Shown here in pieces: positions 1,288-24,782 of a stretch of DNA of 64,000 nt; within the stretch, counting starts at the first letter, position 1; the number at the start of each line of letters is the position of its first letter. The notes below the pieces were generated by a model, which was not told the DNA's origin, did no database searches, and saw nothing but the letters and a program-made list of their open reading frames with translations. The translations under genes and the position numbers were made by a program. Source of the stretch: Clostridia bacterium (lineage in GTDB: Bacteria; Bacillota; Clostridia; RGIG6154); assembly GCA_045589295.1 (NCBI GenBank), contig JAZNOU010000012.1, forward strand, positions 165,353-229,352. Direction: 5' to 3'.

Positions 1288-2538
1288 ATGAATTGCTTTG
1301 TTATGTCGGGAGGCAGGCGTCTTGAAGGTGAAATTACCGTTCAGGGTGCTAAAAATTCAGCATTGCCGCTGATAGCTGCCTGCCTTTTAAACAAAGGAAA
1401 GTGTGTTATTCACGATTGCCCCGATTTATCTGATGTGCGAGCGGCGGTTGATATTTTAAAATGCTTAGGGTGCGATGCAAAATATTCAGATAATACGGTG
1501 ATTTGTAATTCCGAGCATGCAAACAAGCATGTTGTTCCCGAGTATCTTATGAACAAAATGCGTTCATCGGTGATATTTTTGGGGAGTATGATTTCCAATA
1601 TGAAAAAAGCGATACTCTCATACCCCGGTGGATGCGAGATAGGTGCAAGACCTATTGATATACATATCGAAAGCCTTAAAAAATTAGGTGTTGATATTTT
1701 AGAGTGTGAAAATCATCTTACGTGTTTAGCAAATGGAATTGTTCCGTGCAAAATTGTATTGCCGTTTCCGAGTGTAGGCGCAACAGAAAATATTATGCTT
1801 GCAACGGCTGTTTCAAATGGAAAGACAATTATAGAAAATGCGGCTAAAGAGCCTGAAATTGTGGATTTGCAGAATTTTTTAAATTCAATGGGCGCACACA
1901 TTTTTGGTGCGGAAACAGGTACAATACAGATAGATGGAGCGGATGAACTTTTTAACACCGAATACACTGTTATTCCTGACAGAATTGCTGCAGCAACTTT
2001 TATGTGCTCGGCTCTGGCAACAGACGGAGAAATTGTTTTAAACAACGTAAGGTGCGACCATTTGGATGCAGTAATAAATGCACTTCGCAAATCAGGTGCG
2101 CAGATACACACTGATACAACTCAGTTGAGCATAAAAAGAGGTAAATATTTTTCAGGCATTGGAAGTCTTGAAACAGAGGTTTATCCCGCGTTCCCAACAG
2201 ATGCACAGCCTGTTCTTACAGCAGCTCTTTCGGTTGCTGACGGAAAAACTGTTTTAAGAGAAAAAATATTTACCGACAGATTTCGCCATGTGCCTTATAT
2301 GAACAATATGGGTGCAGACATAAAAGTTTTTGGCGACACTGCAGAAATAAACGGTGTTGAAAGCCTAAACGGCGATATGCTGCTTGCTCATGAACTGCGC
2401 GGAGGTGCTGCACTTGTGATTGCGGGACTTTGTGCAAAGGGCAGGAGTACTGTTGGCAATATTCAGTTTATTGACAGAGGTTATGAAAAATTAGAAAATA
2501 CATTTAAACGCCTTGGTGCTGATATACAAAGAATTTAA
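1288..2538 (+). CDS. murA: UDP-N-acetylglucosamine 1-carboxyvinyltransferase MurA
   Basis: The N-terminus (GxRLEGEITVQGAKNSALP) and overall length are typical of MurA/EPT. An ATG at 1288 follows a GGAGGTG ribosome-binding site; the ORF track started it at 1270. Confidence 0.9.
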   Translation: MNCFVMSGGRRLEGEITVQGAKNSALPLIAACLLNKGKCVIHDCPDLSDVRAAVDILKCLGCDAKYSDNTVICNSEHANKHVVPEYLMNKMRSSVIFLGSMISNMKKAILSYPGGCEIGARPIDIHIESLKKLGVDILECENHLTCLANGIVPCKIVLPFPSVGATENIMLATAVSNGKTIIENAAKEPEIVDLQNFLNSMGAHIFGAETGTIQIDGADELFNTEYTVIPDRIAAATFMCSALATDGEIVLNNVRCDHLDAVINALRKSGAQIHTDTTQLSIKRGKYFSGIGSLETEVYPAFPTDAQPVLTAALSVADGKTVLREKIFTDRFRHVPYMNNMGADIKVFGDTAEINGVESLNGDMLLAHELRGGAALVIAGLCAKGRSTVGNIQFIDRGYEKLENTFKRLGADIQRI

Positions 2539-2549
2539 AGGTAAACATA

Positions 2550-3323
2550 ATGGAAAAAAAGAAACAAACCAGCGGTAAAATAATTGATATTAACCGCAAG
2601 GAAATCAGAAAACGAAAAAAAAGAGCCGCCAGAAATCGATTTATATGTTTTTTGGCGGTTATAGCTGTTATATGCTTTTTGATGACGCCTGTTTTCAATA
2701 TCAAATGGATTGATGTTGAGGGTAACCAGAAAACCAAATTTGGTGAAATAGTAAAGGCATCAGGGGTTGAGTATGAGCAGAATATGTTCAGGTTGAATAT
2801 TAAAAAGAGCAAACAGCAGATAAGGACGATAGCTTATATTGATGATGTTAAAATAGCCAGACATATTTCAGGCGGAGTAATGATAAAAGTTACTGAAAGA
2901 GAGCCTGTTGCTTGTTTAAAATACGCAAACGGCTTTGTGCTGATTGATAAGGAAGGAAGGCTTTTAGAAACATTAAAAGAACCTACGGGGTATCCTGAAA
3001 TTGTAGGCATTAAACTTTCAAAGCAAAAGATTGGCGATATATTAAAAGAAACTGATGAAGCTAAAATAGCCACTATGGATGAGCTTTTGGATAAACTTAA
3101 AGAACATGAGCTTTTACAAAGGACATCTAAAATTAACATTTCAAAAGCAAATAACGCAGAGTTTGTTATTGACGGCAATAAAAATATTATAACAGGTGGG
3201 AATTACAGACTCGATTATAAACTTATGATGCTAGAAGCAACAGTTTCAGAGCTTTCAAGGTCAGAAGCAGGAACGATAGATTTGTCAACAGAAGGTGAAG
3301 CACTCTTTACACCGGACGAGTAA
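2550..3323 (+). CDS. ftsQ: cell division protein FtsQ/DivIB (POTRA domain)
   Basis: The 257-aa product has a basic N-terminus, a single TM and a POTRA-like region (IKWIDVEGNQ...), and sits downstream of ftsW-murA. Confidence 0.75.
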   Translation: MEKKKQTSGKIIDINRKEIRKRKKRAARNRFICFLAVIAVICFLMTPVFNIKWIDVEGNQKTKFGEIVKASGVEYEQNMFRLNIKKSKQQIRTIAYIDDVKIARHISGGVMIKVTEREPVACLKYANGFVLIDKEGRLLETLKEPTGYPEIVGIKLSKQKIGDILKETDEAKIATMDELLDKLKEHELLQRTSKINISKANNAEFVIDGNKNIITGGNYRLDYKLMMLEATVSELSRSEAGTIDLSTEGEALFTPDE

Positions 3324-3338
3324 TCAAAACAGCAAGAC

Positions 3339-3367
3339 TTGACATAAATATAATTTAATGTTAGAAT
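3339..3367 (+). promoter_or_regulatory. sigma-A type promoter (TTGACA-17-TAGAAT) driving the FMN riboswitch and ribU
   Basis: TTGACA lies at 3339-3344 and TAGAAT at 3362-3367, separated by a 17-nt spacer. Confidence 0.5.
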
Positions 3368-3371
3368 GATT

Positions 3372-3485
3372 TTAAGCTTCGGGGCAGGGTGAGATTCCCT
3401 ACCGGCGGTTATAGCCCGCGAGCGCAAAAGCGCAGATTTGGTGTAATTCCAAAGCCGACGGTAAAGTCCGGATGAAAGAAGTTGT
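3372..3485 (+). promoter_or_regulatory. FMN riboswitch (RFN element) aptamer
   Basis: It contains the hallmark RFN conserved segments CTTCGGGGCAGGGTGAGATTCCCTACCGGCGGT...AGCCCGCGAGC...GATTTGGTGTAATTCCAAAGCCGACGGTAAAGTCCGGATGAAAGAAG. Confidence 0.85.
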
Positions 3486-3499
3486 AAAAATTAGTATTT

Positions 3500-3535
3500 T
3501 TTGTGCCCCCTTGCATTAGAGGGGCATTTTTTTGT
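3500..3535 (+). terminator. riboswitch expression-platform intrinsic terminator
   Basis: A GC hairpin (TGCCCCC...GGGGGCA) is followed by a run of seven T, 25 nt upstream of the ribU start. Confidence 0.6.
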
Positions 3536-3558
3536 TCCAAAATGAAAGGAAGATTTAA

Positions 3559-4104
3559 ATGAAAAAGAAAAATTTAAGAAAACTTACAGTTATGGGACTT
3601 TTGTGTGCGGTGTCTGTGATTTTGGTGTCAATTATTCACTTTCCACTTTTTGCGGCAGCACCATTTTTAGAGTATGATCCGGCAGATGTTCCGATATTTA
3701 TCGCAACATTTTCGTTTGGTCCTGTGGCAGGGTTTTTGGTTACTATAGTAACTTCTGTTATTCAAGGAACAACTGTCAGTGCATCAAGCGGACTTTACGG
3801 AATTTTAATGCACATAATTTCAACAGGAAGCTTTTGCCTTGTGTCAGGGGTTACATATAAAAAGTTTCACACAAAAAAGGGCGCTGCGATTTCACTTGTT
3901 ATAGGAACACTTGCTATGACGCTTGTTATGATTCCTGCCAATCTATTTATAACACCGTATTTTATGGGTGCACCTGTTTCTGTTATAAAGGGGTTACTTT
4001 TGCCCGTAATTATTCCTTTTAACTTTATTAAGGCGGCTGTAAACTCTGTTATAACATTTTTGCTTTACAAAAGAATTGCAAGACTGTGGGAAAATAAAGA
4101 ATAA
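3559..4104 (+). CDS. ribU: ECF-type riboflavin transporter S component (RibU-like)
   Basis: The 181-aa product has 5-6 TM helices and sits immediately downstream of the FMN riboswitch, the conserved Firmicutes arrangement. Confidence 0.75.
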   Translation: MKKKNLRKLTVMGLLCAVSVILVSIIHFPLFAAAPFLEYDPADVPIFIATFSFGPVAGFLVTIVTSVIQGTTVSASSGLYGILMHIISTGSFCLVSGVTYKKFHTKKGAAISLVIGTLAMTLVMIPANLFITPYFMGAPVSVIKGLLLPVIIPFNFIKAAVNSVITFLLYKRIARLWENKE

Positions 4105-4153
4105 AAACGTGACTTTTAATTGAATTTGTGCCTATAAAGTCGAATGTATCTAG

Positions 4154-4183
4154 TTGACAAAACTAGGTGCAAAGTGGTATAAT
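4154..4183 (+). promoter_or_regulatory. promoter TTGACA-18-TGgTATAAT (extended -10)
   Basis: Near-consensus -35 and extended -10 elements lie upstream of the hemolysin III gene. Confidence 0.45.
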
Positions 4184-4209
4184 TTACAAAAAAGTTAAAG
4201 GGGTGCATC

Positions 4210-4890
4210 ATGGAAAGAACAAAGCTTAAAGACAGAATTCTTCCCCCATATACAAAAGGCGAAGAAATTATGAATATGGTAACGCATATCGTAGGCGGTG
4301 CAATAGGTATTGTTGCGCTTGTTTTGTGCGTGATAAAAGCGGCACTTAATTCAAACGTTTATGGAGTTGTGAGTGGAGCTATTTTTGGTGCTACTATGAT
4401 TATACTTTATACAATGTCAAGTGTGTATCATGGACTTAATCCAAACCTTACTGCAAAAAAAGTTTTTCAGATTATTGATCATTGCTCAATCTTCATTCTC
4501 ATTGCGGGAACATATACGCCTATCGTTCTTTGCACAATAAGGAGTATTTCGCCTGTGATTGGCTGGGCATATTTTGGGTTTGTGTGGGCTGTGGCGGCAT
4601 TTGGTATTGTATTAAATTCAATAGATCTTAAAAAATATGATAATTTTTCACTTATATGCTATTTGCTACTTGGCTGGTGCATTATTTTTAACATAAAAAC
4701 AGTGGCGGCAGGTGTTGGTTTTGGCGGAATGATGTTTTTGGTAAGCGGAGGAATAGCCTATACGATTGGTGCAATATTTTATGCAATGGGCAAAAAAAGG
4801 AACACAAAGTATATCCATAGTGTGTTCCATATCTTTGTGGATTTGGGAAGTTTATTTCACTTTTTCTGCATACTTTTCTATGTAATGTAA
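4210..4890 (+). CDS. hemolysin III / PAQR family channel protein (YqfA-like)
   Basis: The 226-aa product has seven TM helices and the conserved HxxG, SxxYH and HIFVD motifs of the hemolysin III family. Confidence 0.85.
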   Translation: MERTKLKDRILPPYTKGEEIMNMVTHIVGGAIGIVALVLCVIKAALNSNVYGVVSGAIFGATMIILYTMSSVYHGLNPNLTAKKVFQIIDHCSIFILIAGTYTPIVLCTIRSISPVIGWAYFGFVWAVAAFGIVLNSIDLKKYDNFSLICYLLLGWCIIFNIKTVAAGVGFGGMMFLVSGGIAYTIGAIFYAMGKKRNTKYIHSVFHIFVDLGSLFHFFCILFYVM

Positions 4891-4917
4891 AAAGCAGTCA
4901 GTTGACTGCTTTTTTTC
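4891..4917. terminator. bidirectional intrinsic terminator
   Basis: A perfect hairpin (AGCAGTCA-GT-TGACTGCT) is flanked by an A-run and a T-run between convergent genes. Confidence 0.6.
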
Positions 4918-5413
4918 TTATCAGACTCATTATTGCTAGAGTTATTAAAATTCCTGAAATACTACCAAAAGAGTCAATTAAAATGTCGGTAAACTGACAA
5001 CTTCTTCCTGGCACAAATGTCTGGTGGAGTTCATCAGTTATTGCATAAAAAACACAAAATGTGAGAGAAATAATTACATTTTTTTGAAGGTAGTGGTTGC
5101 CTTTTTTAATAAAGCTTAGTGAATTGGATATAAAGATTGAAACTCCCAGTAACAAAAAAAGAAAAAAGTGTGCGGTTTTTCTTACATAATTATTTATCTT
5201 TTTGACAAGCTCATTTTTTTCTTTTTTAGAAATATTTTTGTTTTTGGTGACTGCAGTTACGATTTTTTTGGTTACTGATTTGCTTACTAAGTTTGATTTT
5301 GTGGCGGGTTGTGATGAAAAATAAAAGATAGACGCCATAATAATCAGTGTGAAAAAGTATGCAATTATTTTTTTGATAATCAGATGCGGATTTGTTCCTG
5401 AAATCATAGTCAC
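4898..5413 (-). CDS. VanZ family membrane protein
   Basis: It carries the FSSQP motif and the C-terminal TDELHQTFVPGRSxQFTDILIDSFG motif typical of VanZ-like proteins. It overlaps the upstream FHA gene by 4 nt. Confidence 0.75.
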   Translation of the reverse strand: MTMISGTNPHLIIKKIIAYFFTLIIMASIFYFSSQPATKSNLVSKSVTKKIVTAVTKNKNISKKEKNELVKKINNYVRKTAHFFLFLLLGVSIFISNSLSFIKKGNHYLQKNVIISLTFCVFYAITDELHQTFVPGRSCQFTDILIDSFGSISGILITLAIMSLIRKKAVN

Positions 5414-5859
5414 TCCTCGTCAAACCTTGGTTCAACAAATAAGAACATAAGCTGACCGATTTTTATAAGATCTCCCGTTTTTATGGCACAAGGCTCCAAC
5501 CCTATGCGCTCGCCGTTTACGAATGTGCCGTTTGTTGTGTCATTATCAACAATTGTCCACATGTCGTGCGATTTTAAAAACTGTGCATGCACAGTTGACA
5601 TAAAAGGGTCTGAAATTATAATATCGTTTTTTCCACCTCTGCCTATTGTGAACTTGTGCTTGATATTATAACTTTCCTCAACTCTGAAAGGAACGGATTT
5701 TATTTTGTTTATCAGTTTGATGTATGGTGTGTCATCTAAAACGGTCCCCATACGTGAGTGCTTGATATCAAGGTAAATCAGTCTTATAATGCTGAACATA
5801 AAAAAGTAAATAGCTGTTACAAACAGGTATTTTAAAAGACCTGAAACAAGCTCAAACAT
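5410..5859 (-). CDS. FHA domain-containing membrane-anchored protein
   Basis: An N-terminal TM is followed by an FHA core (FTIGRGGKNDIIISDPFMSTVHAQF...NGTFVNGERI). Confidence 0.8.
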   Translation of the reverse strand: MFELVSGLLKYLFVTAIYFFMFSIIRLIYLDIKHSRMGTVLDDTPYIKLINKIKSVPFRVEESYNIKHKFTIGRGGKNDIIISDPFMSTVHAQFLKSHDMWTIVDNDTTNGTFVNGERIGLEPCAIKTGDLIKIGQLMFLFVEPRFDEE

Positions 5860-5999
5860 AAAAAATCCCTCACTTTCTTTTTAATTAGTATAATATAAGT
5901 ATTGAAAAAATGCAAATTTTTTATTATAATATATAATAGTGTAAATTTTAACTTTAATATTTACATAATTTGCCGGACATATTAAAGTCAGGAGGGAAT

Positions 6000-7451
6000 A
6001 TGGTGCGAAAAAATATTTCAAATCAGGAAGATCCTAATTTAAACAGCTCGGGGCAGACAACAGAGGTAGCGCAGGAAACAAAAGTAAAAAAAGCTCCGAC
6101 AAAATTTCAAAAAGCAATTGAATATATCAAGGATAATTCTACAGTGGCAAAAAGCACAGTGATAGGGTTCTTTGTTTTTGCTGTCATATTGGCAATCGTT
6201 TCAAATATTCAGGTGGGTTATGCAGTTGTTTTTAATGATAAGACAATAGGTTATGTTGCGCACAAAGACACTGCACTTGAAAAAATTGATTTTATTTGCA
6301 AAGAAATTACCGACAATATAGCAGACACCGAAACAAATGTTACTGCTTCTTTGGTGCCTTCTGTTGCACCAGCCTTTAAATTTATAGCAGAGGACGAAAT
6401 AGAACAGGCTATCAAAGAGGAGATTTCGTATTATGTTAATGCAGCGGCTGTTTATATAGATGGAGAGTTTGCGTTTGCAGCAAAAGATGCAACTGAGGCA
6501 GAAACGTTTATTAAAAAATATCAGGAAATGGTTTGCGGTGACGGAACTATTATTTCTTCTCAAAGCGAAAACAAAGTAACATATAAAGATGAAAAGGTTA
6601 TTCTTACAGAAGTGCTGGACGAGCAGGCGGCAATGTCAAGACTTGCGGGAACTGACTCAAAAGATGGACTTTATACTGTTGAAGAAGGAGATACACTGTG
6701 GAATATTGGTATTGATAACGATATTGCAACAGACTATCTTATGGTGCTTAACAACTTAGATAGTGAGGTTCTTCAGATAGGAACTGTTTTGAGGGTAAAA
6801 TATCCAGAACCTATAATTGATGTTAAGGTAGTAAAAGATATTACCTATACCGAAATTCATCCCTACGAAACTGAGAAAAGATATGACAAAAATCTCAACG
6901 TCGGAACATATCGAACATATCAAAAGGGCTCTAACGGCGAAACAAGGGTAAGAGCAATTGTAACTTATGTTAACGGCAATGAAATTGAACGTGAAATTAC
7001 AGAAAAAACTGTTTTAAGTGAGCCTGTTACAGAAATTCTTTTGGTAGGAACAAAGCCAAAGCCAAAAACTGCGGCGACAGGAAAGTTTGCAAGACCTATT
7101 TCGGGTGGATATGTGTCGTCCTCATTTGGCAACAGAAGCCGTGGATATCATACAGGCGTTGACTGGGCAGTTTCATATGGAACACCTATTTATGCATCAG
7201 ACGGCGGAACAGTTACAGCCGCCGGATGGGGTGGTGGTTACGGCAAAATGGTTAAAATTAATCATGGTAATGGGTATGAAACTTTGTATGCCCATTGCTC
7301 AAAGCTTGTCGTATCAAGTGGAAAGAAAGTTGCAAAGGGGCAGCTTATTGGTTATGTAGGTAGTACAGGAAACAGCACAGGACCTCATTTGCATTTTGAA
7401 ATAAGAAGAAATGGTTCATACCTCAATCCTACTAAATATTGTGGTGAATAA
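6000..7451 (+). CDS. LysM domain-containing M23 family metallopeptidase
   Basis: An ATG at 6000 follows an AGGAGGG ribosome-binding site. The protein has an N-terminal TM, a LysM domain (YTVEEGDTLWNIG) and a C-terminal M23 domain (HTGVDW...HLHFEIR). Confidence 0.85.
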   Translation: MVRKNISNQEDPNLNSSGQTTEVAQETKVKKAPTKFQKAIEYIKDNSTVAKSTVIGFFVFAVILAIVSNIQVGYAVVFNDKTIGYVAHKDTALEKIDFICKEITDNIADTETNVTASLVPSVAPAFKFIAEDEIEQAIKEEISYYVNAAAVYIDGEFAFAAKDATEAETFIKKYQEMVCGDGTIISSQSENKVTYKDEKVILTEVLDEQAAMSRLAGTDSKDGLYTVEEGDTLWNIGIDNDIATDYLMVLNNLDSEVLQIGTVLRVKYPEPIIDVKVVKDITYTEIHPYETEKRYDKNLNVGTYRTYQKGSNGETRVRAIVTYVNGNEIEREITEKTVLSEPVTEILLVGTKPKPKTAATGKFARPISGGYVSSSFGNRSRGYHTGVDWAVSYGTPIYASDGGTVTAAGWGGGYGKMVKINHGNGYETLYAHCSKLVVSSGKKVAKGQLIGYVGSTGNSTGPHLHFEIRRNGSYLNPTKYCGE

Positions 7452-7523
7452 AACTTTAAGCAATCTCTCTTGTATGGGGGGATTGCTTGTAGGTTTTTGT
7501 CGCAAAATTTTTAGAAAAAACAC

Positions 7524-7552
7524 TTGATTTTGGTAAGTAGGTGTGCTATAAT
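7524..7552 (+). promoter_or_regulatory. consensus sigma-A promoter TTGATT-17-TATAAT
   Basis: An exact TATAAT at 7547-7552 sits 17 nt downstream of TTGATT, with an A-tract upstream. It lies 60 nt upstream of the PqqD-family gene. Confidence 0.6.
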
Positions 7553-7615
7553 TATCTTACGTAGGTATAACTGTGGATTTTTTTGTGTACCAATCAATTT
7601 TTGGAAGGTGAACAG

Positions 7616-7879
7616 ATGCGACTAAAAGATGGCTTTTTATTAAGAAATGTTGCCGGTGAATATGTTGTTGTCCCAACAGGGAACAGCATGGTTGACTTTA
7701 AGGCTATGATATCTCTTAATGAAACAGGCGCGTTTTTATGGGAGCAGCTTTTAGCAGACAAATCAGAGCAGCAACTTTTAGATGCGCTTTTGAGTGAGTA
7801 TGACGTTGATGAAAAAACCGCATCTGAAGATATTAAAGAGTTTGTAGAGTTGCTTAAAGAAAAGAACCTGTTGGTATGA
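7616..7879 (+). CDS. PqqD family protein (RiPP recognition element, lasso B1-like)
   Basis: The 87-aa product has the PqqD/RRE fold signature (MRLKDGFLLRNVAGEYVVVP...LNETGAFLWEQL...). A ribosome-binding site AAGGTG lies 5 nt upstream of the ATG, and the gene overlaps the next by ATGA. Confidence 0.8.
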   Translation: MRLKDGFLLRNVAGEYVVVPTGNSMVDFKAMISLNETGAFLWEQLLADKSEQQLLDALLSEYDVDEKTASEDIKEFVELLKEKNLLV

Positions 7880-8328
7880 ATATGAAAAAAGTCTTAAGTA
7901 CAAAAGAGATTATGCCTCTTGTGGGAGACATCTTAAAAACGGCGGAGCGAGTTAGGTTTACCGTTAAGGGAAACAGTATGTATCCGCTTTTAAGGTCGGA
8001 CCGCGACGAGGTAGAGGTTATAAAGTGCGATAGTATAGGCAAGTATGATATTGTTCTTTACAAAAGAAACAATGGTGACTATATTCTTCACAGGGTGCTC
8101 AAAGAAAATGACAACGCACTTTCAATAGCAGGCGATTTTGAACAGGAACTTGAAAGCCCTGTGTATAAAGATCAGGTTATTGCAAAAGTTGTCAATATAA
8201 TAAGAGACGGTAAAAAAGTTATCTCTTGTAACAACGGCATCTATAAAACGTATTGTGTTTTGTGGGCGGCGGTATTTAAAAACAGACGAAGGATACTTAA
8301 AATACTTAAGAAACTGAGGAAATGGTGA
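7876..8328 (+). CDS. S26/S24-type serine peptidase, Ser/His (SipW/ER-type-like), no TM anchor
   Basis: It has a GNSMYPLL nucleophile box and an IVLYK...YILHRVL box, with His where bacterial signal peptidase I (SPase I) has Lys. There is no N-terminal hydrophobic anchor, and the C-terminus is an amphipathic basic tail. Confidence 0.6.
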   Translation: MNMKKVLSTKEIMPLVGDILKTAERVRFTVKGNSMYPLLRSDRDEVEVIKCDSIGKYDIVLYKRNNGDYILHRVLKENDNALSIAGDFEQELESPVYKDQVIAKVVNIIRDGKKVISCNNGIYKTYCVLWAAVFKNRRRILKILKKLRKW

Positions 8329-9998
8329 AATTGAAAAATAAAGATATCGCTAAACAATGGTTTTTTAAGAATATCAGACAGGTTTTTGGCGGAGTTTTTG
8401 CTCTTACTTTTGTTTCTGTCCTGATTAATGTGTCAGGTGTCGGATTTGCGATTTCTTCAAAACGTGTTTTGGATGTAGCATCTAATTCAACTGAAGGGAA
8501 CTTATTAACAGAAGCTTTAGTTTTGTTTTCTTTGGTTGTGATTCAGCTTATTTTGCAAATTATCCTCTCTAAGTGCTATGTTAAAACGCAGGCACAAACG
8601 AGAATTAAAATAAAAACCGACTTGTTTGAAAGCATAGTGAAAAAAGATTTAACTGAGGTGAATTTTTATCACTCGGGTGAGTTGGTTAACAGGCTCACAA
8701 GCGACGTTAACGTTGTGTCAAACGCGGTGGTGGATATTTTACCAACTGCGATAGCACTTAGCATTGGGGTTTGTTTAAGCTTTGGGGTATTGTTCAGTTT
8801 GGACCCTGTTTATGCAGTTATTTATCTGATAGTTGCACCCCTTGCACTTTTAACTGCAAGATTTTTTAGAAAAAGGCTTAAAGTGTTACATAAAGAGTCG
8901 GTTTCAACCGACGGGATTGTTAAATCGTTTATGCAGGAATGTTTCAGAAATCTGCTCGTGGTCAAGGCTTTTGAAAAAGAAGATCACGTAACCGAAAAGT
9001 GTAATGCTTATCAACTTGCTAACTACAAGGTTTTGATAAAGAAAAACGATATCAGCATTTTAGCGAACGTAATGTTCTTTTTGTCCATTACTGCAGGCTA
9101 TTATTTAACTCTTATTTGGGGGGCATACAAGCTTTCGATAGGAATTTTAACAATCGGTGAAATTGTTGCAATGCTTGAACTTGTTTCACAAATTCAGTCC
9201 CCGCTAAAGTCATTATCATCACTTCTTCCGCAGTATTATTCGGCGGTAGCTTCATCTGAAAGAATTTTGGAGCTTGAAGATTTGCCTGATGAAAAACAAC
9301 TAAATGCAAGCAGTGAAAAAGTTGATGACTTTTCAAAGCTTGTCATTGACAATATGTCTTTTTCGTATGATGAAAGTTTAATTTTTGATAAAGCTTCCTG
9401 CGAAATTGAAAAAGGCGACATCGTCGGAATTTACGGCGAGTCGGGAATTGGAAAAAGCACACTTATAAAACTTATTTTAGGAGTGCTTAAGCCCAATAAG
9501 GGCGAGATTTACATAGTTGACCCGAGCGGTCAAAAGATTTTGGTTGATACAGAAACTAAAAACCTGTTTTCTTATGTGCCTCAAGGTAACCTGATATTAT
9601 CTGGCACAATAGCAGAAAACGTGGTTTTCGGTTCTGACAACATAGATATAAAGCTGGTTGAACGTTGCATCAAAGTGTCGCAGCTTGATGAAATGGTCAG
9701 TCAGTTGCCACTAAAACTTGATACAGGTTTGGGTGAAGGCGGCCTAGGTCTTTCTGAAGGACAGGTACAGCGATTATCTATCGCAAGGGCATTGTATCGG
9801 AATTCTGAAATACTGTTGCTTGATGAAGCAACGTCGGCTCTTGACCGAGAAACCGAAATCAGGGTGTTGGAGGAAATGAAGAGTTTGAATAAGACTTGTC
9901 TTTTCATAACTCACCGCAAAGAAGCACTTTTAAGTTGCAGCAAGCTTTTAAGTGTGAAAAACGGAAAGATTTCCATCGACAGGCAGGAAATTTTATAA
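8322..9998 (+). CDS. ABC transporter, fused permease/ATP-binding exporter
   Basis: The 558-aa product has six TM helices followed by a nucleotide-binding domain with Walker A (GESGIGKST), an LSEGQVQRLSIARAL signature and Walker B (LLLDEATSALD). Confidence 0.85.
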   Translation: MVKLKNKDIAKQWFFKNIRQVFGGVFALTFVSVLINVSGVGFAISSKRVLDVASNSTEGNLLTEALVLFSLVVIQLILQIILSKCYVKTQAQTRIKIKTDLFESIVKKDLTEVNFYHSGELVNRLTSDVNVVSNAVVDILPTAIALSIGVCLSFGVLFSLDPVYAVIYLIVAPLALLTARFFRKRLKVLHKESVSTDGIVKSFMQECFRNLLVVKAFEKEDHVTEKCNAYQLANYKVLIKKNDISILANVMFFLSITAGYYLTLIWGAYKLSIGILTIGEIVAMLELVSQIQSPLKSLSSLLPQYYSAVASSERILELEDLPDEKQLNASSEKVDDFSKLVIDNMSFSYDESLIFDKASCEIEKGDIVGIYGESGIGKSTLIKLILGVLKPNKGEIYIVDPSGQKILVDTETKNLFSYVPQGNLILSGTIAENVVFGSDNIDIKLVERCIKVSQLDEMVSQLPLKLDTGLGEGGLGLSEGQVQRLSIARALYRNSEILLLDEATSALDRETEIRVLEEMKSLNKTCLFITHRKEALLSCSKLLSVKNGKISIDRQEIL

Positions 9999-10020
9999 AG
10001 TTTGTTTGGGAGGAATAAAG

Positions 10021-10977
10021 ATGAAATGTAAGAGAATTATCAAAGTAGTAAGTGCGCTTGCATTAACTGTAGCTTTGTTAGTATCTGCTAGTGTTGTTTC
10101 ATTTGCTGCAACATATACAACACAGACAACATACATTAATGAAGATACTATTGAAGTTATTTCAAGAGCTACAGGCTTAAACGATGGCGAAATGGCTACT
10201 TATGTTGCTTACAGAAACGGCGAGTTCTCAGAAACTAATGCAGTTTACATCGACCAGGCAACAGAGCAGGACAATGCAGTTGAATTTAGATATCAGGCAG
10301 ATTCTGATGATGTAAAAGCAACAGTATTGTTCGGCGGTGAAAGCGCACCGAATACATTGGAGCCGGATAAAGTTGGTCATAAAATTACAGTATATGTTAA
10401 CGAAGTGGCTCAAGGCGACCAAGTTGCTGCTTATGCTGTAGCTGACTATGACGGCGAATATCTCGCAAGAGAATTTTCGGTAAACATTGAAAACGGAAAA
10501 GCTATTAAAAAAGTTGAATTCGCAGCTGATGGAGCTGAAAAAACAACTGTAGAAGCTTGGTATGTTAAAAATGGCGCGTTGGTTGTATTAAGCCGTGTTA
10601 TTGAATCAGATGGTTCATTGTACATTACAGCAGAGGATGCAACCATTTCTGTTAAACTTGGTGCTGTTACTGGTACTGAAAACACAATTACTGCATTTGC
10701 CAAAGCAGTTTGCACAGATGATGCAGACTACGGAATCTTAATTGCGGACTCAGAAGTTGAAATCGAAGCTGCTGGTCGTATTGACTGGAAAGATGCTGAA
10801 GACTACACAACTCCGGTTTATTTCAATGCTTTAGGCAAAGGTAACAATGGTGTATTTGCAGTAGAAGTAACTGATGAAGACTGCTTTGTTGCAGGTAAAA
10901 GCTTTAATGTAAAAGCTTATGCTGATTCTGGAGAGACAGAAGTGTATTCAATTGATACTGTAACTGTAAGATTATAA
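10021..10977 (+). CDS. secreted acidic beta-rich protein with signal peptide (possible cognate of the adjacent peptidase)
   Basis: An ATG at 10021 follows a GGGAGG ribosome-binding site. The signal peptide ends at ...SFA/ATYTT. The protein has no recognisable enzymatic motifs. Confidence 0.55.
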   Translation: MKCKRIIKVVSALALTVALLVSASVVSFAATYTTQTTYINEDTIEVISRATGLNDGEMATYVAYRNGEFSETNAVYIDQATEQDNAVEFRYQADSDDVKATVLFGGESAPNTLEPDKVGHKITVYVNEVAQGDQVAAYAVADYDGEYLAREFSVNIENGKAIKKVEFAADGAEKTTVEAWYVKNGALVVLSRVIESDGSLYITAEDATISVKLGAVTGTENTITAFAKAVCTDDADYGILIADSEVEIEAAGRIDWKDAEDYTTPVYFNALGKGNNGVFAVEVTDEDCFVAGKSFNVKAYADSGETEVYSIDTVTVRL

Positions 10978-11024
10978 GAGCGACTGTATCATTTAACGAT
11001 ACAAATTCAGGAGGAGAATTTACT

Positions 11025-11186
11025 ATGAAAAATTATCAAAAACCTGTTTTAGAGGTTGTTGAATTAGCAGTTGCTGAAAATATCGCTGCATTAGTGCCGA
11101 AAACTATCTATAAAAGATCAGTTGGCAAGAAGATGGCTCAGGACACCAGAATAATGCTTGTAGAAGATTTAAGTAATCTTAGCTAA
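11025..11186 (+). CDS. 53-aa peptide with lasso-precursor-like leader motif (candidate RiPP precursor)
   Basis: Translation is MKNYQKPVLEVVELAVAENIAALVPKTIYKRSVGKKMAQDTRIMLVEDLSNLS. An AGGAGG ribosome-binding site lies 10 nt upstream, and the ORF sits between the exporter operon and the kinase gene. The ORF track missed it because it is under 60 aa. Confidence 0.5.
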   Translation: MKNYQKPVLEVVELAVAENIAALVPKTIYKRSVGKKMAQDTRIMLVEDLSNLS

Positions 11187-11235
11187 TTTTAGCACTGCAA
11201 ATTAAATAAAAATTTGAGAGGATGTTTACTTTAAT

Positions 11236-12111
11236 ATGCAATATACTGTCGCAGGTTTTAATATTGATGTTGTCAGTGAACATCCTTCTTATCTTTTTAT
11301 GAGACTCAAAGACTATGAAAGCACTTTTTCGGGGGAAGCAGACTTTACAGTCAGGTGTAAAGAAGAAAAAAATATCGCTCTCCCCGATGATATTGTGCTT
11401 ATAGGTCAAAGAGTCGGAAGATGGATATGGTTTGAAAAAAAAGATGGTACGCTCGGTGCGTACATAAAATATGACGATGTCGAAAACATTGCGGCATTGG
11501 CATTGTGGGATAAAGCTTTTAAAAATATTGAATTATCTGTTTATGATATTGAGCCATACGGCAATTTGCCAATAGCTCAAAGAATTTTTTATTTACTGGG
11601 AGATGTTATTGCATACTCGGTATTAAACTGCGGTGCAGGAGTTTTCCATTCTTCTGCGATAAGTTATAAAGGAAACGGGATTTTATTTTCCGCACCATCG
11701 GGAACAGGAAAATCCACACATACATCTTTATGGAAAGATGTTTTTGGTGATAATGTTGTTATATTTAATGACGATACACCAATACTTAAGATAGAAAATG
11801 ACGTTTGTTTTGCCTACGGCTCACCTTGGAGCGGCAAAACTGCGATTAATGAAAATATAAAGGTTCCGCTTAAGGCGATTGTATGCCTTGACAGAGCGCA
11901 GACCAATTCAATAAAAAGACTTACGGGGATTAGTGCTTTTTACAGAATTTTCAATGAAATGAGAAAGCCTCCGGTTGAGAGTCTTATGGACAAGAGTCTT
12001 ACGGTTATGGATAGTATTTTGCAGAAAGTTCCGGTTTACGAGCTTTTTTGCAATAAAAATAAAGATGCAGTAATGACAGTTTTTGACGCTGTCGGTTTTG
12101 ACAAATTATAA
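11236..12111 (+). CDS. HPr kinase/phosphorylase-related kinase (HprK C-terminal-like P-loop)
   Basis: The segment GILFSAPSGTGKSTHTSLW...VVIFNDDTPIL matches the HprK P-loop and aspartate-pair architecture. The N-terminal 130 aa are unrelated to authentic HprK. Confidence 0.6.
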   Translation: MQYTVAGFNIDVVSEHPSYLFMRLKDYESTFSGEADFTVRCKEEKNIALPDDIVLIGQRVGRWIWFEKKDGTLGAYIKYDDVENIAALALWDKAFKNIELSVYDIEPYGNLPIAQRIFYLLGDVIAYSVLNCGAGVFHSSAISYKGNGILFSAPSGTGKSTHTSLWKDVFGDNVVIFNDDTPILKIENDVCFAYGSPWSGKTAINENIKVPLKAIVCLDRAQTNSIKRLTGISAFYRIFNEMRKPPVESLMDKSLTVMDSILQKVPVYELFCNKNKDAVMTVFDAVGFDKL

Positions 12112-12125
12112 GAGAGGTAAAAAGG

Positions 12126-13736
12126 ATGAATAAAAAAATATTTTTTGGTACACTTTTGTGTATGGTTTTATGTTTAAGCATTGCGACATGCGCATTTGCC
12201 GCAACATTTTCTGATTTATCAAAAAGCCACTGGGCGTACGATAATATTGTCGAATTAAGTTCACAGGGGGTTATAAACGGATACTCTGACGGTACATTTC
12301 GCCCCGAAGCATATGTTACGAGAGCTGAATTTGTTAAGCTTATAGGTACAATCGATACAATCAAAAATGGTGACTTTGACGACCTACCTAAAACTCACTG
12401 GGCATATGAATACGTTATGAAATCAGGGGTTGATGTTGACAGAAAGAACTTTCGCCCTGATGAAAATATCACAAGAGCAGAAGTTTTAGATATATTGTGG
12501 AACAGATATGGAACTGAAACAGATGCAAAAGTTCCCGGAATTATAGAAAATCAGCACAAAAATGTTCCGGCTGTTACCTGGGGATATTCTTACGGACTTA
12601 TGATAGGCGATGACGGAATAAATTTAAGACTTAGTGATGATTTGTCAAGAGCAGAAGCGGTTACACTTATTTTGCGCTCCAGAAAGATTGATACATCAAA
12701 GCAAAAGTTGCTTGCAGACAATGTAAACAGCAAGATTTTGGAAAATATTTTTAATGATACAATGCTTTTTGATAAACCTTACAGTGAAAATGAAACAGTT
12801 ACAGTTGGCGAAATTTCACACGCAGCTTTAAGACTTGCATATCAAACAAAGCAAATTCCATATAACAAGGATTTGTATATCGGCGATCCACAATTTGATG
12901 GTGATTATGCACTTGATATTGCTCACATGGCAAAACAAGTATTTGGTGAAGCTTCAAACAACAAAGAGTTTGCAGAAGGCAAGGCAAATCAACAGCAGGT
13001 TTTGGCAGCACTTATGTATGGTTATATGTTTAAAGCAAACGACTCGCCTGTAATCGGCAGAATGGATGATTACTACAAAGATGCAGTTGTTGCAAAAGGT
13101 CTTACAATGCAAAATATGTTACTTACATACACTAACAGACGCGGCATTTTTGCAAGCGCTGACGGACTTTTGCATAATGACAAAGCTGTAACACATAAAG
13201 AAATTGCATCAATTCTTTTGCAACTTGATAACTTTACAGGTTCACAAATAAGCTATTCAAACGGCAAAGAATCGGATGAAAAATTAAGCACAGATGCTTA
13301 TATTTACGAAAATGCAGATGATGGATTTGGAATTTTATTAAAAGGCATTCCAAACGTAGTTTACGAGACACCAATGAAAGCTCCTGCTAAAGAGTTTACA
13401 GTTTTTGCAAGAGATTTCTTTGAAATATTTACTACTCTTTCAGATGGCATTAAGGCAAAAGCCAAAAGCGAGGGCGCTGAAATTGTTTTAAGAGTTTATC
13501 CAACACTTATTGCAAATGCAGGCAATGAAGTTATTATGAGAACAAAGATATATGTAGCTTCAAATCCAAAAGGCTTAAATCTTGGTGAAATTATCGGTAA
13601 GTGCGATATGAATACAGATATTAAAGCCTTGGAAGGTAAAACGTATTTTGTTGATATTTCAACCAATCATCCATTGGATGACATGTACATCAATCCTGAA
13701 AATGTAAGCTTAAAACAGCTTATATGGAATGATTAA
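12126..13736 (+). CDS. SLH-domain cell-surface protein
   Basis: A signal peptide is followed by three S-layer-homology repeats (FSDLSKSHWAYDNIVEL...TRAEFVKLI and others) and an unassigned C-terminal domain. Confidence 0.7.
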   Translation: MNKKIFFGTLLCMVLCLSIATCAFAATFSDLSKSHWAYDNIVELSSQGVINGYSDGTFRPEAYVTRAEFVKLIGTIDTIKNGDFDDLPKTHWAYEYVMKSGVDVDRKNFRPDENITRAEVLDILWNRYGTETDAKVPGIIENQHKNVPAVTWGYSYGLMIGDDGINLRLSDDLSRAEAVTLILRSRKIDTSKQKLLADNVNSKILENIFNDTMLFDKPYSENETVTVGEISHAALRLAYQTKQIPYNKDLYIGDPQFDGDYALDIAHMAKQVFGEASNNKEFAEGKANQQQVLAALMYGYMFKANDSPVIGRMDDYYKDAVVAKGLTMQNMLLTYTNRRGIFASADGLLHNDKAVTHKEIASILLQLDNFTGSQISYSNGKESDEKLSTDAYIYENADDGFGILLKGIPNVVYETPMKAPAKEFTVFARDFFEIFTTLSDGIKAKAKSEGAEIVLRVYPTLIANAGNEVIMRTKIYVASNPKGLNLGEIIGKCDMNTDIKALEGKTYFVDISTNHPLDDMYINPENVSLKQLIWND

Positions 13737-13766: not shown

Positions 13767-14459
13767 ATGGAAGAAAGAGAAATTGATATCTGGGGACTAA
13801 TACAGTCAATAATTAAGAGATGGTGGATTGTTGCTATTATCACTGTTATAGTCGGAACAACAGGTTTTACATATTCAAAATTTGCAATCACTCCTTTGTA
13901 TGCGGCAAAAGGAACACTTTATATTACCGTAGACAATACTGCCTCCTTGCAAGGTGGAACAAGTCTTGATTACAACTCAATTTTGGCGGCACAGGAGCTT
14001 ACAAAAACATATTCTTTAATACTTTCAAGTAATACATTCTACAGAATTGTTGCTGCAGAAAGCGGACTTGACTACAGCTATAAAGAAATTTCAAGAATGG
14101 TTACAATGGGCAACGAAAATGACAGTGAAATTATGTCGATTACAGCAAAATGTGCAAATAGAGAACACGCAGCTATTATTGTTGAAACTATACTTAACAA
14201 TGCACAGGCAGAAATTTCAAGAGTGGTTATTGGCGGAAGTGTAAGAATTATTGACCATCCTGAACTTCCTAACGGACACTCATATCCTAACGTAACAAAG
14301 AACACATTCTTATGCTTGGCGCTTGGTGTTATCTTAGGTTGTGCTCTTGCAATTTTCATTGAATGGCTTGATGATACAATCAAGAGTGATGAGGATGTGC
14401 TGAAGTTTGGCATCCCGATATTAGCAGTTATCCCGCTTTTAGAAACAAAAAGCGAGTAA
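13767..14459 (+). CDS. Wzz/CpsC/YwqC-family polysaccharide chain-length (tyrosine-kinase modulator) protein
   Basis: It has two TM helices, a periplasmic-type loop and a C-terminal DDTIKSDEDVLKFGIPILAVIP segment typical of CapA/YwqC. No cognate BY-kinase gene follows. Confidence 0.8.
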   Translation: MEEREIDIWGLIQSIIKRWWIVAIITVIVGTTGFTYSKFAITPLYAAKGTLYITVDNTASLQGGTSLDYNSILAAQELTKTYSLILSSNTFYRIVAAESGLDYSYKEISRMVTMGNENDSEIMSITAKCANREHAAIIVETILNNAQAEISRVVIGGSVRIIDHPELPNGHSYPNVTKNTFLCLALGVILGCALAIFIEWLDDTIKSDEDVLKFGIPILAVIPLLETKSE

Positions 14460-14487: not shown

Positions 14488-17400
14488 GTGAGAGAAGATA
14501 TGAGAAAGCGTGTAAAATCGCTTATTGGCATGATTATTGCAATGACTATGATCTTGCCGACGGCTTTGCCGGTGACAACTCCTGTTTCGGCACAAAATTC
14601 CTACGGATTTAATGATTTTCCTACCGGATGGTCAGCACCTGCAATGTCACATGCAGTTGAAAACGGATTGATATACGGAAAATCCGAAGACCGTATATGT
14701 CCTACAGATAATTTAACTAGAGCGGAAATGGCTACAATCATTAACCGTGCATTCGGTGCTACGGTGGAAAAGGATATTTCGGCATTTTCAGATGTAGCTC
14801 AGTCAGCTTGGTATTACAATGAAATAAAAAAGGCATACAATATGCAAACCCTTTATGGTGATGCAGGCGGCACTATGCGTCCCGATGCCTTTATTATAAG
14901 AGAAGAAGCCATAGCGATTGTTGCAAGAGCTATGGTTTTAAGTGGTTATTCGGCTTCTAATCTTGATAAGTTTAATGATAAAGACCAAATTGCAGATTGG
15001 GCAGTAGATCCGCTGGCTTCAATGGTAGCAAACGGCTACGTTAACGGCGATGAAAAGTCTAATATGAATCCGAAGGCATTCATTACCAGAGAAGAATTTG
15101 CTCAGCTTTTACATAATATTGTTAAGCATTATTATGATGCTGAAGATGGCGTAACAACATTCAACGGGAATGTTATGATTAATGAACCGACCACTTCATT
15201 GAGTGATTTGGTTGTTAATGGCGATCTTATTTTGGGTGATGGTGTTGGAACAAGCAACATTGTTCTAAAAAATGTTAAAGTAACAGGTCGTATCCTTATC
15301 AGAGGCGCAACCCATATTTCGTTTAAAAACAGCAACTTTGGTGGCGGCGTTACAGTTAAAAATGTTAATGATGTGGTACATTTTGATCATTTTAGTGATG
15401 AAGTGCATTTTAATGATATGCAAGATCACACAGAGGTCACATTTAAGAAGAAAACTACCGGCGGTGGCGGTGGTGGAACTCCTCCGGCACCTACAACTGC
15501 TAGTTATAAAGTGGAACACTATCAGGAAGCTTTGGATGGAAGTTTTGCAGTTTTTGAAACAGAAACCCTTTCAGGCAGTATTGGTGCAAGTGTTACAGCA
15601 GTAGCTAAAACCTATACAGGTTTTAGCGAAGATACTGTAAATCCATCAAGAGTTGCAACAGGCACTGTTGTATCTGATGGTTCTTTGACTCTTAAGCTTT
15701 TTTACACAAGAAACAGTTATACAGTAACATTTGATGCTCGCGGCGGTGCTATTTCAGGCACACCGAAAACTGTTTATAAATTCGGTGAAACATTAGAACT
15801 CCCTGTACCTACAAAAGGAACAGACACATTTGGCGGGTGGTGGACAGCGCTAAATGGAACAGGAACAAAAATTGAAAATACAAGCGTATTGGGAACAGAT
15901 ATTACATCTGCTGCCATTACTGTTTATGCGCATTGGATACCTGCAGCTCCGACTCCCACAGCTACGACGTTTACAGTAAAACATTTGTTTGAAAAACTTG
16001 ACGGAACTTATGAAACTAAAGCAGAACGCGGAGATGAACTTAACGTTGCCGGTGATATAACGGTTTCAATCGTTCCTGAAAATTACAGAAATCCGATTGC
16101 GGGATTTAATTATTTTGATTATAGCTTTGACGGAACAGACAATGCAGGCATGCCAAAAGCAGATGGAAGCACTGTTCTTAATATCCGTTATAATAGAAAG
16201 AGCTACGACATCGTATATAACTATGGTGAAGCAGGCGGAAGCAACACAGTTTCATTTAGATATGGTGAAAGTGTAGATCTTTCAATTCCGACAGTTACAC
16301 CACCTGTAGGTAAGTATTTTGCAGGTTGGTATGATGCACTTGTTGGCGGCACACAGGTAACATTCCTTGAAACACCTGTTGGCGGAACAACAATTTATGC
16401 ACGTTGGGCAGAAGATGTTGGAGTTTATACTGTTGAATTCTATCAGCAGAATTTGGATGGAACTTACACCCAAGTAACTGCGGACACTTTATCAGGACTT
16501 ACTGGTGTAGTAGGAACAGATGTAAGTGTGGATAAAAATTCGACCACAATCAAAGATAAGTATATAGGTTTTGAAGTTAATGAAACAGAAAGTACACTCA
16601 CACAAAGACTTGCTAAAACAGGCACAGTACTTAAAGTTTATTATGACAGAAAGATTTATACAATCGATTACGACTTTGATGGCGGTTATGCAGATGGAAC
16701 ATATACTGATACATTTATGTATGGCCAAACCGTTGCGCTTGCCAAAGGTAAAAATAGCAATGGCAAGGTTTTAGGCGGTTGGTTTACCGATTTAGATGGT
16801 AATGGCACACAGGTAACAGATACTGCAAATATTGATGCTATCTTAGGCGCGCTCACAGGCAATACAATCACACTTTATGCTTATTGGGTAGAAGAAATAG
16901 GCGAATATTCTGTTGAATTCTATCAGGAAACTTTAGATGGTGCTGATTATACTCTTGTTGCAGCTGACACTATTGTCGGTCTTACAGGAACAGTCGGCGA
17001 GAAAGTAGCTATTGATGCAACAATAGATGAAGTTAAGAATAAATATTCAGGCTTTACAGTAAACGTTGCAAAGAGTGAACTTTCAAAAACACTTGCTAAA
17101 GAGGGCACAGTTCTTAAAGTTTACTACGACAGAAATATTTATACCTTGTATTACAATTATAGCGATGCTGATACTGTGGGAATTGGAAGTGCGACCTTTA
17201 AACATGGTCAGAATATCACATTCCCTGATGAATCAACATTCAATAAAGAATCATTTAGCTTTGCAGGCTGGTACACAACCCAGGACTTTAAAGATGATGA
17301 AGTTGTAGATACAGGCAATACAATCGAACAGATTATAGACATTGCAAATGGTGAAACAGAAACTACCATATATGCTAAATGGGCAAAATTCTTCACAGTA

Positions 17401-23345: not shown

Positions 23346-23352
23346 GTTGTTA

Positions 23353-23385
23353 AAAGGTGAAAGTTTTATCTTTCGCCTTTTTTAT
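23353..23385 (+). terminator. intrinsic terminator
   Basis: An 11-bp stem (AAAGGTGAAAG / CTTTCGCCTTT with one G-U wobble) is followed by a T-run. Confidence 0.5.
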
Positions 23386-23467
23386 GTACTAAAATACTAT
23401 TGACTTTATTTGCTAAATATTATATAATATTTATACATGTGGACAAAGTTTTAAGGAGGAAAAAAGC

Positions 23468-24769: not shown

Positions 24770-24782
24770 GGGGGGCTGAAAA

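Follow-up and report, generated by a model that had tools for sequence, protein, structure and literature searches.

The closest described relatives of the locus analysed here are the kinase-containing lasso peptide clusters of Firmicutes, namely those of paeninodin (pade) and pseudomycoidin (psm) and those of the precursors ThcoA, BaceA and PapoA, together with the SynChlorMet (SCM) cassette, an in-silico definition (TIGR04248, TIGR04249 and PF27840) that we take to consist of ScmC, the PqqD homologue ScmD and two radical SAM/SPASM proteins. The locus itself lies at positions 7524 to 12111 of the window, by which we mean the whole 64,000-nucleotide stretch of a Clostridia bacterium contig (JAZNOU010000012.1, positions 165,353 to 229,352 of the forward strand) that was analysed, and it encodes a PqqD-family protein, a serine peptidase, an ABC exporter, a secreted protein, a 53-amino-acid (aa) peptide and a ScmC-family protein. 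Lasso-peptide kinases have in common a His-Lys-Asp-Asp motif of which all four residues are essential, and their target for phosphorylation is the Ser at the C-terminus of the linear precursor (PMC9266682); in pseudomycoidin, this phospho-Ser is decorated by the PsmN-type NTP_transf_5 enzyme (PMC9266682). The YxxPxL motif in the leaders of lasso precursors is recognised by the RRE (the RiPP recognition element, RiPPs being peptides that are made on the ribosome and modified after translation) (PMC10368454). A survey with RRE-Finder left about half of ~8,000 lasso-type discrete RREs without a cyclase and peptidase, and these were deemed possible false positives (PMC7470986).

We consider it quite probable that the window locus is an RRE-dependent, RiPP-type peptide-maturation cassette, and the best explanation of its origin is that it derives from the lasso pathways of Firmicutes that include a kinase, or is a sister of them, minus the enzymes that form the lasso. 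In the full scheme, towards which we lean with less assurance, the 53-aa precursor would be translated and its N-terminal Y-x-x-P-x-L-E-V leader bound by PqqD, ScmC would phosphorylate a Ser of the leader-bound precursor (likeliest Ser53), a cytoplasmic Ser/His S26-type peptidase coupled to PqqD would cut off the leader, and the ABC transporter would export the linear phosphorylated peptide. That PqqD binds the leader, that a Ser is phosphorylated and which one, where the leader is cut, that the peptide is exported and what the product does are all inferred.

The resemblance to the kinase-containing lasso clusters extends to the leader motif and the Ser-ended precursor, the discrete PqqD-type RRE, the ABC exporter, and an HprK-fold kinase-like protein with the His-Lys-Asp-Asp tetrad; a PsmN-type NTP_transf_5 enzyme is likewise common to those clusters and to loci related to the window cassette. 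Unlike those clusters, the window locus has neither the Asn-synthetase-like cyclase nor the transglutaminase-like B2 protease, and the position of the leader peptidase is held by an unrelated Ser/His S26-type enzyme. Its kinase-like protein belongs to the ScmC family (PF27840), which the Hpr_kinase_C model misses, its PqqD falls below the cut-offs of the lasso B1 models, and the conserved N-terminal block of its precursor is longer (31 aa) than lasso leaders, with no evident Thr(-2)-type boundary. With the SynChlorMet cassette the locus shares the pairing of a ScmC-family protein with a PqqD homologue, but there is no radical SAM enzyme between 7524 and 14459, the precursor contains no Cys, and the locus adds an S26-like peptidase, an ABC exporter and an identified precursor. 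The proposal of the first-pass annotation that the pathway is undescribed agrees with our search of the literature on ScmC, SynChlorMet, PF27840 and RiPP combinations of PqqD, HPr kinase and S24/S26 peptidase, in which we found no description or published characterisation of such a cassette; neither RRE-Finder (PMC7470986) nor a 2025 RRE structure paper nor a radical SAM compendium speaks of a kinase or peptidase of this kind.

The features of the locus and its immediate flanks, all on the + strand, are as follows.

7457-7489, + strand: intrinsic-terminator-like hairpin (14-pair stem and T tract) that ends the upstream M23/LysM/G5 peptidase gene
7524-7552, + strand: TTGATT-17-TATAAT promoter of the sigma-70 type (TG extension of the -10 box; 10/12 matches)
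7616-7879, + strand: PqqD-family RRE gene, 87 aa (alternative TTG start at 7583)
7876-8328, + strand: cytoplasmic S24/S26-fold serine peptidase, 150 aa (Ser34, His72, Asp87)
8322-9998, + strand: fused ABC exporter, 558 aa (transmembrane domain plus ATPase)
10021-10977, + strand: signal-peptide protein, 318 aa (alternative start at 10006)
11025-11186, + strand: putative precursor peptide, 53 aa (ribosome-binding site, leader model, 41 variants, alignment with lasso precursors)
11236-12111, + strand: ScmC-family (PF27840) P-loop kinase-like protein, 291 aa, of PEPCK/HprK fold (His138, Lys159, Asp179, Asp180)
12126-13736, + strand: SLH-domain protein, the synteny partner directly 3' of ScmC in the window clade
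13767-14459, + strand: Wzz/CpsC chain-length determinant, the synteny partner after the SLH gene in the window clade

The 53-aa open reading frame (ORF) shows the pattern of a precursor-type peptide. Its N-terminus carries the motif Y4-x-x-P7-x-L9-E-V (here Y4-Q-K-P7-V-L9), and among 41 distinct close relatives of 52-55 aa, residues 1-31 (MKNYQKPVLEVVELAVAENIAALVPKTIYKR) hardly change, variation is concentrated in residues 32-52, and every sequence ends in Ser, so that the Ser ending pointed out in the first-pass annotation extends to the whole close clade. When the window is compared with locus L003 (L numbers denote the related loci), whose ScmC is 70% identical, codons 1-31 show 4 synonymous changes and no non-synonymous one, against 2 and 15, respectively, in codons 32-53; the leader is under purifying selection. 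Loci whose ScmC is only 32-39% identical keep the leader, with unrelated tails. The lasso-like leader motif claimed in the first-pass annotation was borne out by alignment with PadeA, PapoA, PsmA, BaceA and ThcoA, the precursors of phosphorylated Firmicutes lasso peptides (sequences from the supplement of PMC10368454), which gives the pattern [YW]-x-x-P-x-[LI]-E-V-[LV]-[DE], and these five precursors and the 53-aa peptide all end in Ser after an acidic stretch. The peptide itself matches no Pfam or NCBIfam family. It had been described as unannotated; the ORF is indeed present, but public gene sets do call it, as a hypothetical protein.

A hidden Markov model (HMM) of the leader, run on ~1.2 Mb of related-locus DNA, found only ORFs that adjoin a ScmC or PqqD gene at E < 1e-3. 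Small ORFs of this type stand beside ScmC or PqqD in ~20 diverse loci, some in 2-5 tandem copies with hypervariable cores, and the finds include L004, L020 (3 copies), L066 (2), L052 (2), L037, L075, L077, L027 and L067 (several in tandem), with hypervariable cores that are at times rich in Cys or Trp. Weaker candidates beside the cassette (leader-HMM E 0.01-11, or a regular-expression match) occur in L058, L044, L070 and L043. Four to five tandem short precursor genes (~30-40 aa) lie directly 5' of ScmC at L067:685-1333, and they have a common leader, ...P-x-E-V-E-V-I-x-F-x-S-E-D-V-I-T, and very short variable cores. From these patterns, the 53-aa ORF behaves like a RiPP-type precursor, and its invariant Ser53 would be the most likely phosphorylation target by analogy with the lasso precursors. 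As a separate observation, most precursors outside the window clade (L037, L067, L075, L020, L066, L027, L058 and L070) have a conserved Ser ~23 residues from the start, directly after an E-[DE]-[IV]-[IL] block and within [AT]-x-S, which is missing from the window clade; this Ser might lie at P1 of a small-x-small cleavage site or else be phosphorylated.

The expression signals fit an intact operon. The hairpin at 7457-7489 is its 5' boundary, and directly 3' of it stands the promoter, whose presence and quality were confirmed (its score of 10/12 is the joint top in a 7.3-kb scan). Downstream follow six co-directional + strand ORFs, all intact and placed as first described, with overlaps of 4 nucleotides (nt) between the PqqD and peptidase genes and 7 nt between the peptidase and ABC genes, and the ribosome-binding site AGGAGGAG lies 8 nt 5' of the 53-aa ORF, in keeping with its earlier description as excellent. 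No + strand terminator with a stem of more than 6 pairs was found between 7552 and 14600. A 6-bp hairpin, TGTATC-N7-GATACA, at 10985-11003, between the stop of the secreted-protein gene and the ribosome-binding site of the precursor, is kept in L003 and might act in RNA processing or RNA stability and in this way boost expression of the precursor.

Assignment of the first, third and fourth genes agreed with the first-pass annotation. The PqqD-family protein matches Pfam PF05402 with an E value of 4.9e-19, and public gene calls use its 87-aa form. Its top NCBIfam matches are lasso B1 models, at sub-cut-off scores (NF033530, 40 bits vs 70; NF033536, 36 vs 80), and we propose that it is a discrete RRE that would bind the leader of the peptide. 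The exporter matches ABC_membrane (2.7e-32) and ABC_tran (2.9e-26), as expected of a fused protein, carries no C39 peptidase domain, and is proposed as the putative exporter of the mature peptide. The 318-aa protein is acidic, carries a hydrophobic signal at its N-terminus (KD19 2.30 at residues 9-27), and matches no Pfam or NCBIfam model; its family comprises 7 loci of the window clade only, always in the same position between the ABC gene and the precursor, and a role in immunity, as a receptor or at the cell surface is possible.

The 150-aa peptidase encoded by the second gene has no Pfam match, and its sole sequence match is the archaeal/ER-type signal peptidase model TIGR02228 (24.7 bits vs a cut-off of 51.85); some members of its family do reach the PF00717 cut-off, e.g., P0289 (27.7 bits). 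An S24/S26 beta-barrel fold was assigned to it, with SipA as the best structural match. Across 138 representatives of 50%-identity clusters, G32, S34, M35, P37, R73, G86 and D87 are 100% conserved, H72 99% and E93 97%, and a His rather than a Lys stands 38 residues after the Ser. This combination of a Ser box (GxSMxP), a His box (HR(V/I)) and a GD box is the arrangement of the Ser/His signal peptidases of Sec11/SipW type. The enzyme thus shares its Ser, His and GD boxes with the S26B signal peptidases (Sec11, SipW) and the SipA pilus chaperone; unlike the S26B enzymes, it has no transmembrane anchor or signal sequence and scores below the family HMM cut-off. Its N-terminus is a 22-residue helix only, and no hydrophobic or transmembrane segment was detected in it (maximum KD19 0.93), so the earlier description of a Ser/His enzyme free of a membrane anchor stands. 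The family is large: a limit of E <= 1e-3 takes in 12,547 clusters of 50% identity, and one of E <= 1e-10 still takes in 4,389.

This peptidase is genetically coupled to PqqD. Its gene directly follows PqqD in 35 of 44 loci, mostly with overlapping stop and start, and single-chain fusions to PqqD with intact catalytic motifs occur (P0299 and P0295), besides fusions to NTP_transf_5 (P0289 and the L037 gene, L037:2427-4046) and to a methyltransferase (P0274). Such fusions tie the components of the cassette together in function. Because it is genetically coupled or fused to the RRE, a cytoplasmic leader peptidase is suggested rather than a signal peptidase, and we propose that the enzyme may act as an RRE-dependent cytoplasmic leader peptidase. 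To our knowledge, a Ser/His signal-peptidase-type enzyme has not previously been reported for RiPP leader removal. Three other affiliations were considered and rejected. A LexA-like S24 self-cleaving regulator would have a Ser/Lys dyad and an Ala-Gly site, and the window protein has no DNA-binding domain and a His in place of the Lys. The Ruminococcin C peptidase is an M16 metallopeptidase. A TasA/SipW-type biofilm operon, which the first-pass annotation had named as a context that would count against its proposal if the small ORF were not conserved, was also dismissed: no TasA/TapA-like partner was found with Pfam or NCBIfam, the peptidase is soluble, and the small ORF is conserved with its leader under purifying selection.

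The last gene of the cassette had been called an HPr-kinase-related P-loop kinase, which holds for the HprK/PEPCK fold and the catalytic tetrad and not for the family, since the protein belongs to ScmC rather than to the classical Hpr_kinase_C. Precomputed annotation places the identical protein and all 120 listed homologues in PF27840 (ScmC), and 2,010 homologues were found at E <= 0.001. The equivalog scores fall short (22.2 bits vs 125 for ScmC, TIGR04249; 16.9 vs 100 for ScmD, TIGR04248, with the PqqD). The protein has an HprK-type catalytic fold with a P-loop, to which PEPCK matches over 228 residues at least as well as HprK, and an extra N-terminal beta domain. H138, K159 (in the P-loop), D179 and D180 are 96-100% conserved among the 120 database homologues and 82 genome-locus homologues, and their equivalence to the tetrad of lasso kinases was judged from order and spacing. 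Compared with HprK/P, the P-loop and the His, Lys and Asp-Asp residues are alike; there is no match at the sequence level, the N-terminal domain is different, and the context is a peptide cassette, not ptsH or carbon catabolite control. We propose that ScmC is a peptide Ser kinase.

Many uncultured Clostridia of the gut and rumen, from many genera, carry the cassette. A genome scan with the ScmC alignment gave 80 loci, mostly from uncultured Clostridia (e.g., Oscillospiraceae, Acutalibacteraceae, Christensenellaceae and Congzhengia). Neighbours were counted within 5 kb in the 41 fully flanked loci, i.e., those with at least 4 kb on both sides, and these counts are lower bounds, as they come from single-sequence phmmer searches: PqqD was found in 28/41, the peptidase in 27/41, the ABC exporter in 26/41, and PqqD together with the peptidase in 23/41. 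The common gene order is ScmC-PqqD-peptidase-ABC, and that of the window clade is PqqD-peptidase-ABC-secreted protein-precursor-ScmC-SLH, usually with Wzz next. NTP_transf_5 is a separate neighbour in 10 loci. In loci with Cys-rich precursors (the distant relatives L020, L066, L052 and L044), a radical SAM/SPASM enzyme stands between ScmC and PqqD, a feature that links the cassette family to the in-silico SynChlorMet cassette; there, Cys- or Trp-rich precursors with the same leader occur at 2-3 per locus (L020:7818-9896, L066:9559-9914, L052:10532-10825, and L044:535-786 and 4506-4679), and the products are probably of thioether type, made on the same platform. No further recurring enzyme was found among the cassette neighbours. 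The L066 cassette is located inside a polysaccharide locus (1384-7933 and 14551-15804) with an AMP-binding enzyme, a glutamine-dependent Asn synthase, a Polysacc_synt_2 dehydratase and a GT1 glycosyltransferase, and automated miners could mistake this Asn synthase for a lasso cyclase.

Several observations weigh against the scheme of a kinase-modified, leader-cleaved linear peptide, or at least against parts of it. The C-terminal Ser is invariant in the close clade only; the last residue of more distant precursors is A, Q, Y, V or N, so that relatives may be modified at a different residue. About 60 of the 82 related loci have no recognisable precursor within 2.5 kb. A lasso-style count from YxxPxL would put the boundary of leader and core near residues 18-21, but conservation in the window clade extends to residue 31. 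ScmC gave no Pfam match to Hpr_kinase_C (PF07475) at E <= 0.01, and searches with its profile and with its P-loop fragment against all PDB chains returned noise only, with no HprK chain; the kinase assignment rests on fold and motif because there is no sequence match to Hpr_kinase_C or to a PDB kinase. The fusion proteins are known from database gene calls. The search for lasso enzymes covered the 64-kb window and the 82 related loci, and a cyclase/B2 pair elsewhere in the genome is possible. Ser phosphorylation at the C-terminus is the least certain step, because this residue is fixed in the close clade only and because ScmC stands apart from the proven lasso kinases.

Such a pair would make the locus one half of a split lasso pathway, with precursor, B1, kinase and exporter here, the cyclase and B2 elsewhere, a phosphorylated lasso product, and some other job for the S26-like peptidase. 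The close resemblance of the leader and C-terminal Ser to paeninodin-type precursors, the B1 models at the top of the PqqD matches and a genome view limited to 64 kb all speak for this reading, which we nevertheless hold to be improbable. As the first-pass annotation had stated for the locus, cyclase and B2 are both absent, and the absence extends much further: tblastn searches and an HMM made from five B2 proteins detected no B2 protease in the window or the 82 homologous loci of different species, no ORF with an SGGxDS PP-loop was found in the window, and no Asn_synthase or transglutaminase domain was found in the Pfam-scanned window ORFs, including ten large ORFs outside the operon, all of which are housekeeping or envelope genes. 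The sole AsnB-like ORF in the related loci, that of L066, was rejected as a hidden lasso cyclase, as it has full glutamine amidotransferase (GATase) domains and polysaccharide neighbours. Furthermore, the S26-like peptidase is the component most tightly coupled, and sometimes fused, to PqqD, which is the place of B2 in lasso clusters, the PqqD scores lie far below the B1 cut-offs, and about half of the lasso-type discrete RREs likewise have no cyclase and peptidase partners (PMC7470986). Loss of both class-defining lasso enzymes could also mark the locus as the decayed remnant of a lasso cluster that makes no product. This is strongly disfavoured, and hardly to be expected, given six intact ORFs with coupled starts behind a strong promoter, catalytic residues that are 96-100% conserved over hundreds of homologues, the purifying selection on the leader, and the conservation of the cassette across many genera. 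A defence-system reading was dropped, as PADLOC models matched only generic ABC ATPases.

A different doubt concerns the chemistry of ScmC, which may not be a Ser kinase and may instead carry out other ATP-dependent chemistry (e.g., activation of a carboxylate or the backbone, leading to cyclisation or elimination) or serve as a scaffold, with PqqD, peptidase and exporter working as proposed. The PEPCK match that at least equals the HprK match, the extra N-terminal beta domain, the separation of the family from Hpr_kinase_C, the presence of ScmC in radical SAM/SPASM cassettes for which no phosphorylation is reported, and the variable last residue of distant precursors are all compatible with such a role. 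We still regard it as unlikely, because the invariant His-Lys-Asp-Asp tetrad and P-loop are as in HprK and the lasso kinases, the invariant C-terminal Ser after acidic residues mirrors known kinase substrates, and NTP_transf_5, which acts on phospho-Ser in pseudomycoidin, co-occurs in 10 loci and is found fused to the peptidase. The cassette might also be a cell-envelope module that processes or regulates S-layer/SLH proteins or the capsule chain-length machinery, the peptide being a regulator, chaperone or anchor rather than an exported product. In its favour, an SLH gene follows ScmC in 8/8 window-clade loci, joined by Wzz/CpsC in 6/8 (ScmC-SLH-Wzz in L003, L005, L006, L008, L017 and L021; SLH only in L004 and L009), even at 36-39% ScmC identity, with no convincing terminator between ScmC and the SLH/Wzz genes; genes for Wzz, CpsD-like, CpsB, LCP, glycosyltransferase and SLH proteins are repeatedly found close to the cassette; and the structure that best matches the peptidase is that of SipA, a homologue of signal peptidases on which pilus assembly depends. 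However, neither a signal peptide nor a transmembrane segment is present in the peptidase, PqqD or ScmC, which are therefore unable to act on exported proteins outside the membrane, many cassettes have unrelated housekeeping ORFs on their flanks (e.g., groES/EL-like, AspRS-like and NAPRT-like), Wzz and SLH genes lie within 5 kb in only 7/41 and 6/41 of the fully flanked loci, and a hypervariable core and tandem precursor copies are typical of secreted RiPPs, all of which makes an envelope module an improbable reading too.

For the maturation cassette that we favour, membership of the SLH and Wzz/CpsC genes in the system is uncertain. In the window, as in L003, these two genes are followed by one for an SLH protein of ~2,400 aa (14488-21714), and the Wzz of the window has no adjacent CpsD-like kinase partner. 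Farther downstream, 21780-25670 encodes a second SLH protein, with Listeria-Bacteroides (Flg_new) repeats, and then come SecD/SecF genes, neighbours that place the cassette in a block of cell-envelope and secretion genes. On the other side, and opposite in strand to the cassette, a 149-aa ORF (5410-5859, - strand) with an N-terminal hydrophobic segment and a FHA-like domain judged by eye overlaps a membrane protein gene (4898-5413, - strand).

Overall, there is a fair chance that a new RiPP class begins with this locus. Our more specific and more tentative suggestion, one that we would call possible, is a widespread class of anaerobic Clostridia, with this locus as its first recognised member, in which ScmC would be the core modifying enzyme (here the sole one), an RRE-guided or RRE-fused cytoplasmic Ser/His peptidase would remove the leader, and the products would be linear phosphopeptides, elsewhere phosphoglycosyl- or thioether-peptides, often encoded in S-layer or capsule loci. 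The embedding in such loci hints at a signalling or envelope role rather than an antibiotic one. RRE-guided maturation is usually classed by its defining enzyme, and here a lasso-type leader, an RRE and a kinase-like protein persist without the lasso enzymes and with a different protease. The system is small, with six genes and a 53-aa substrate, and is open to direct heterologous testing. If the proposal is true, part of the 'orphan' lasso-type RREs now treated as false positives would be explained (PMC7470986), a new type of leader peptidase would join the RiPP toolbox, the ScmC family would gain its first predicted substrate, and a family of small secreted phosphopeptides would be present in poorly studied gut and rumen Clostridia.

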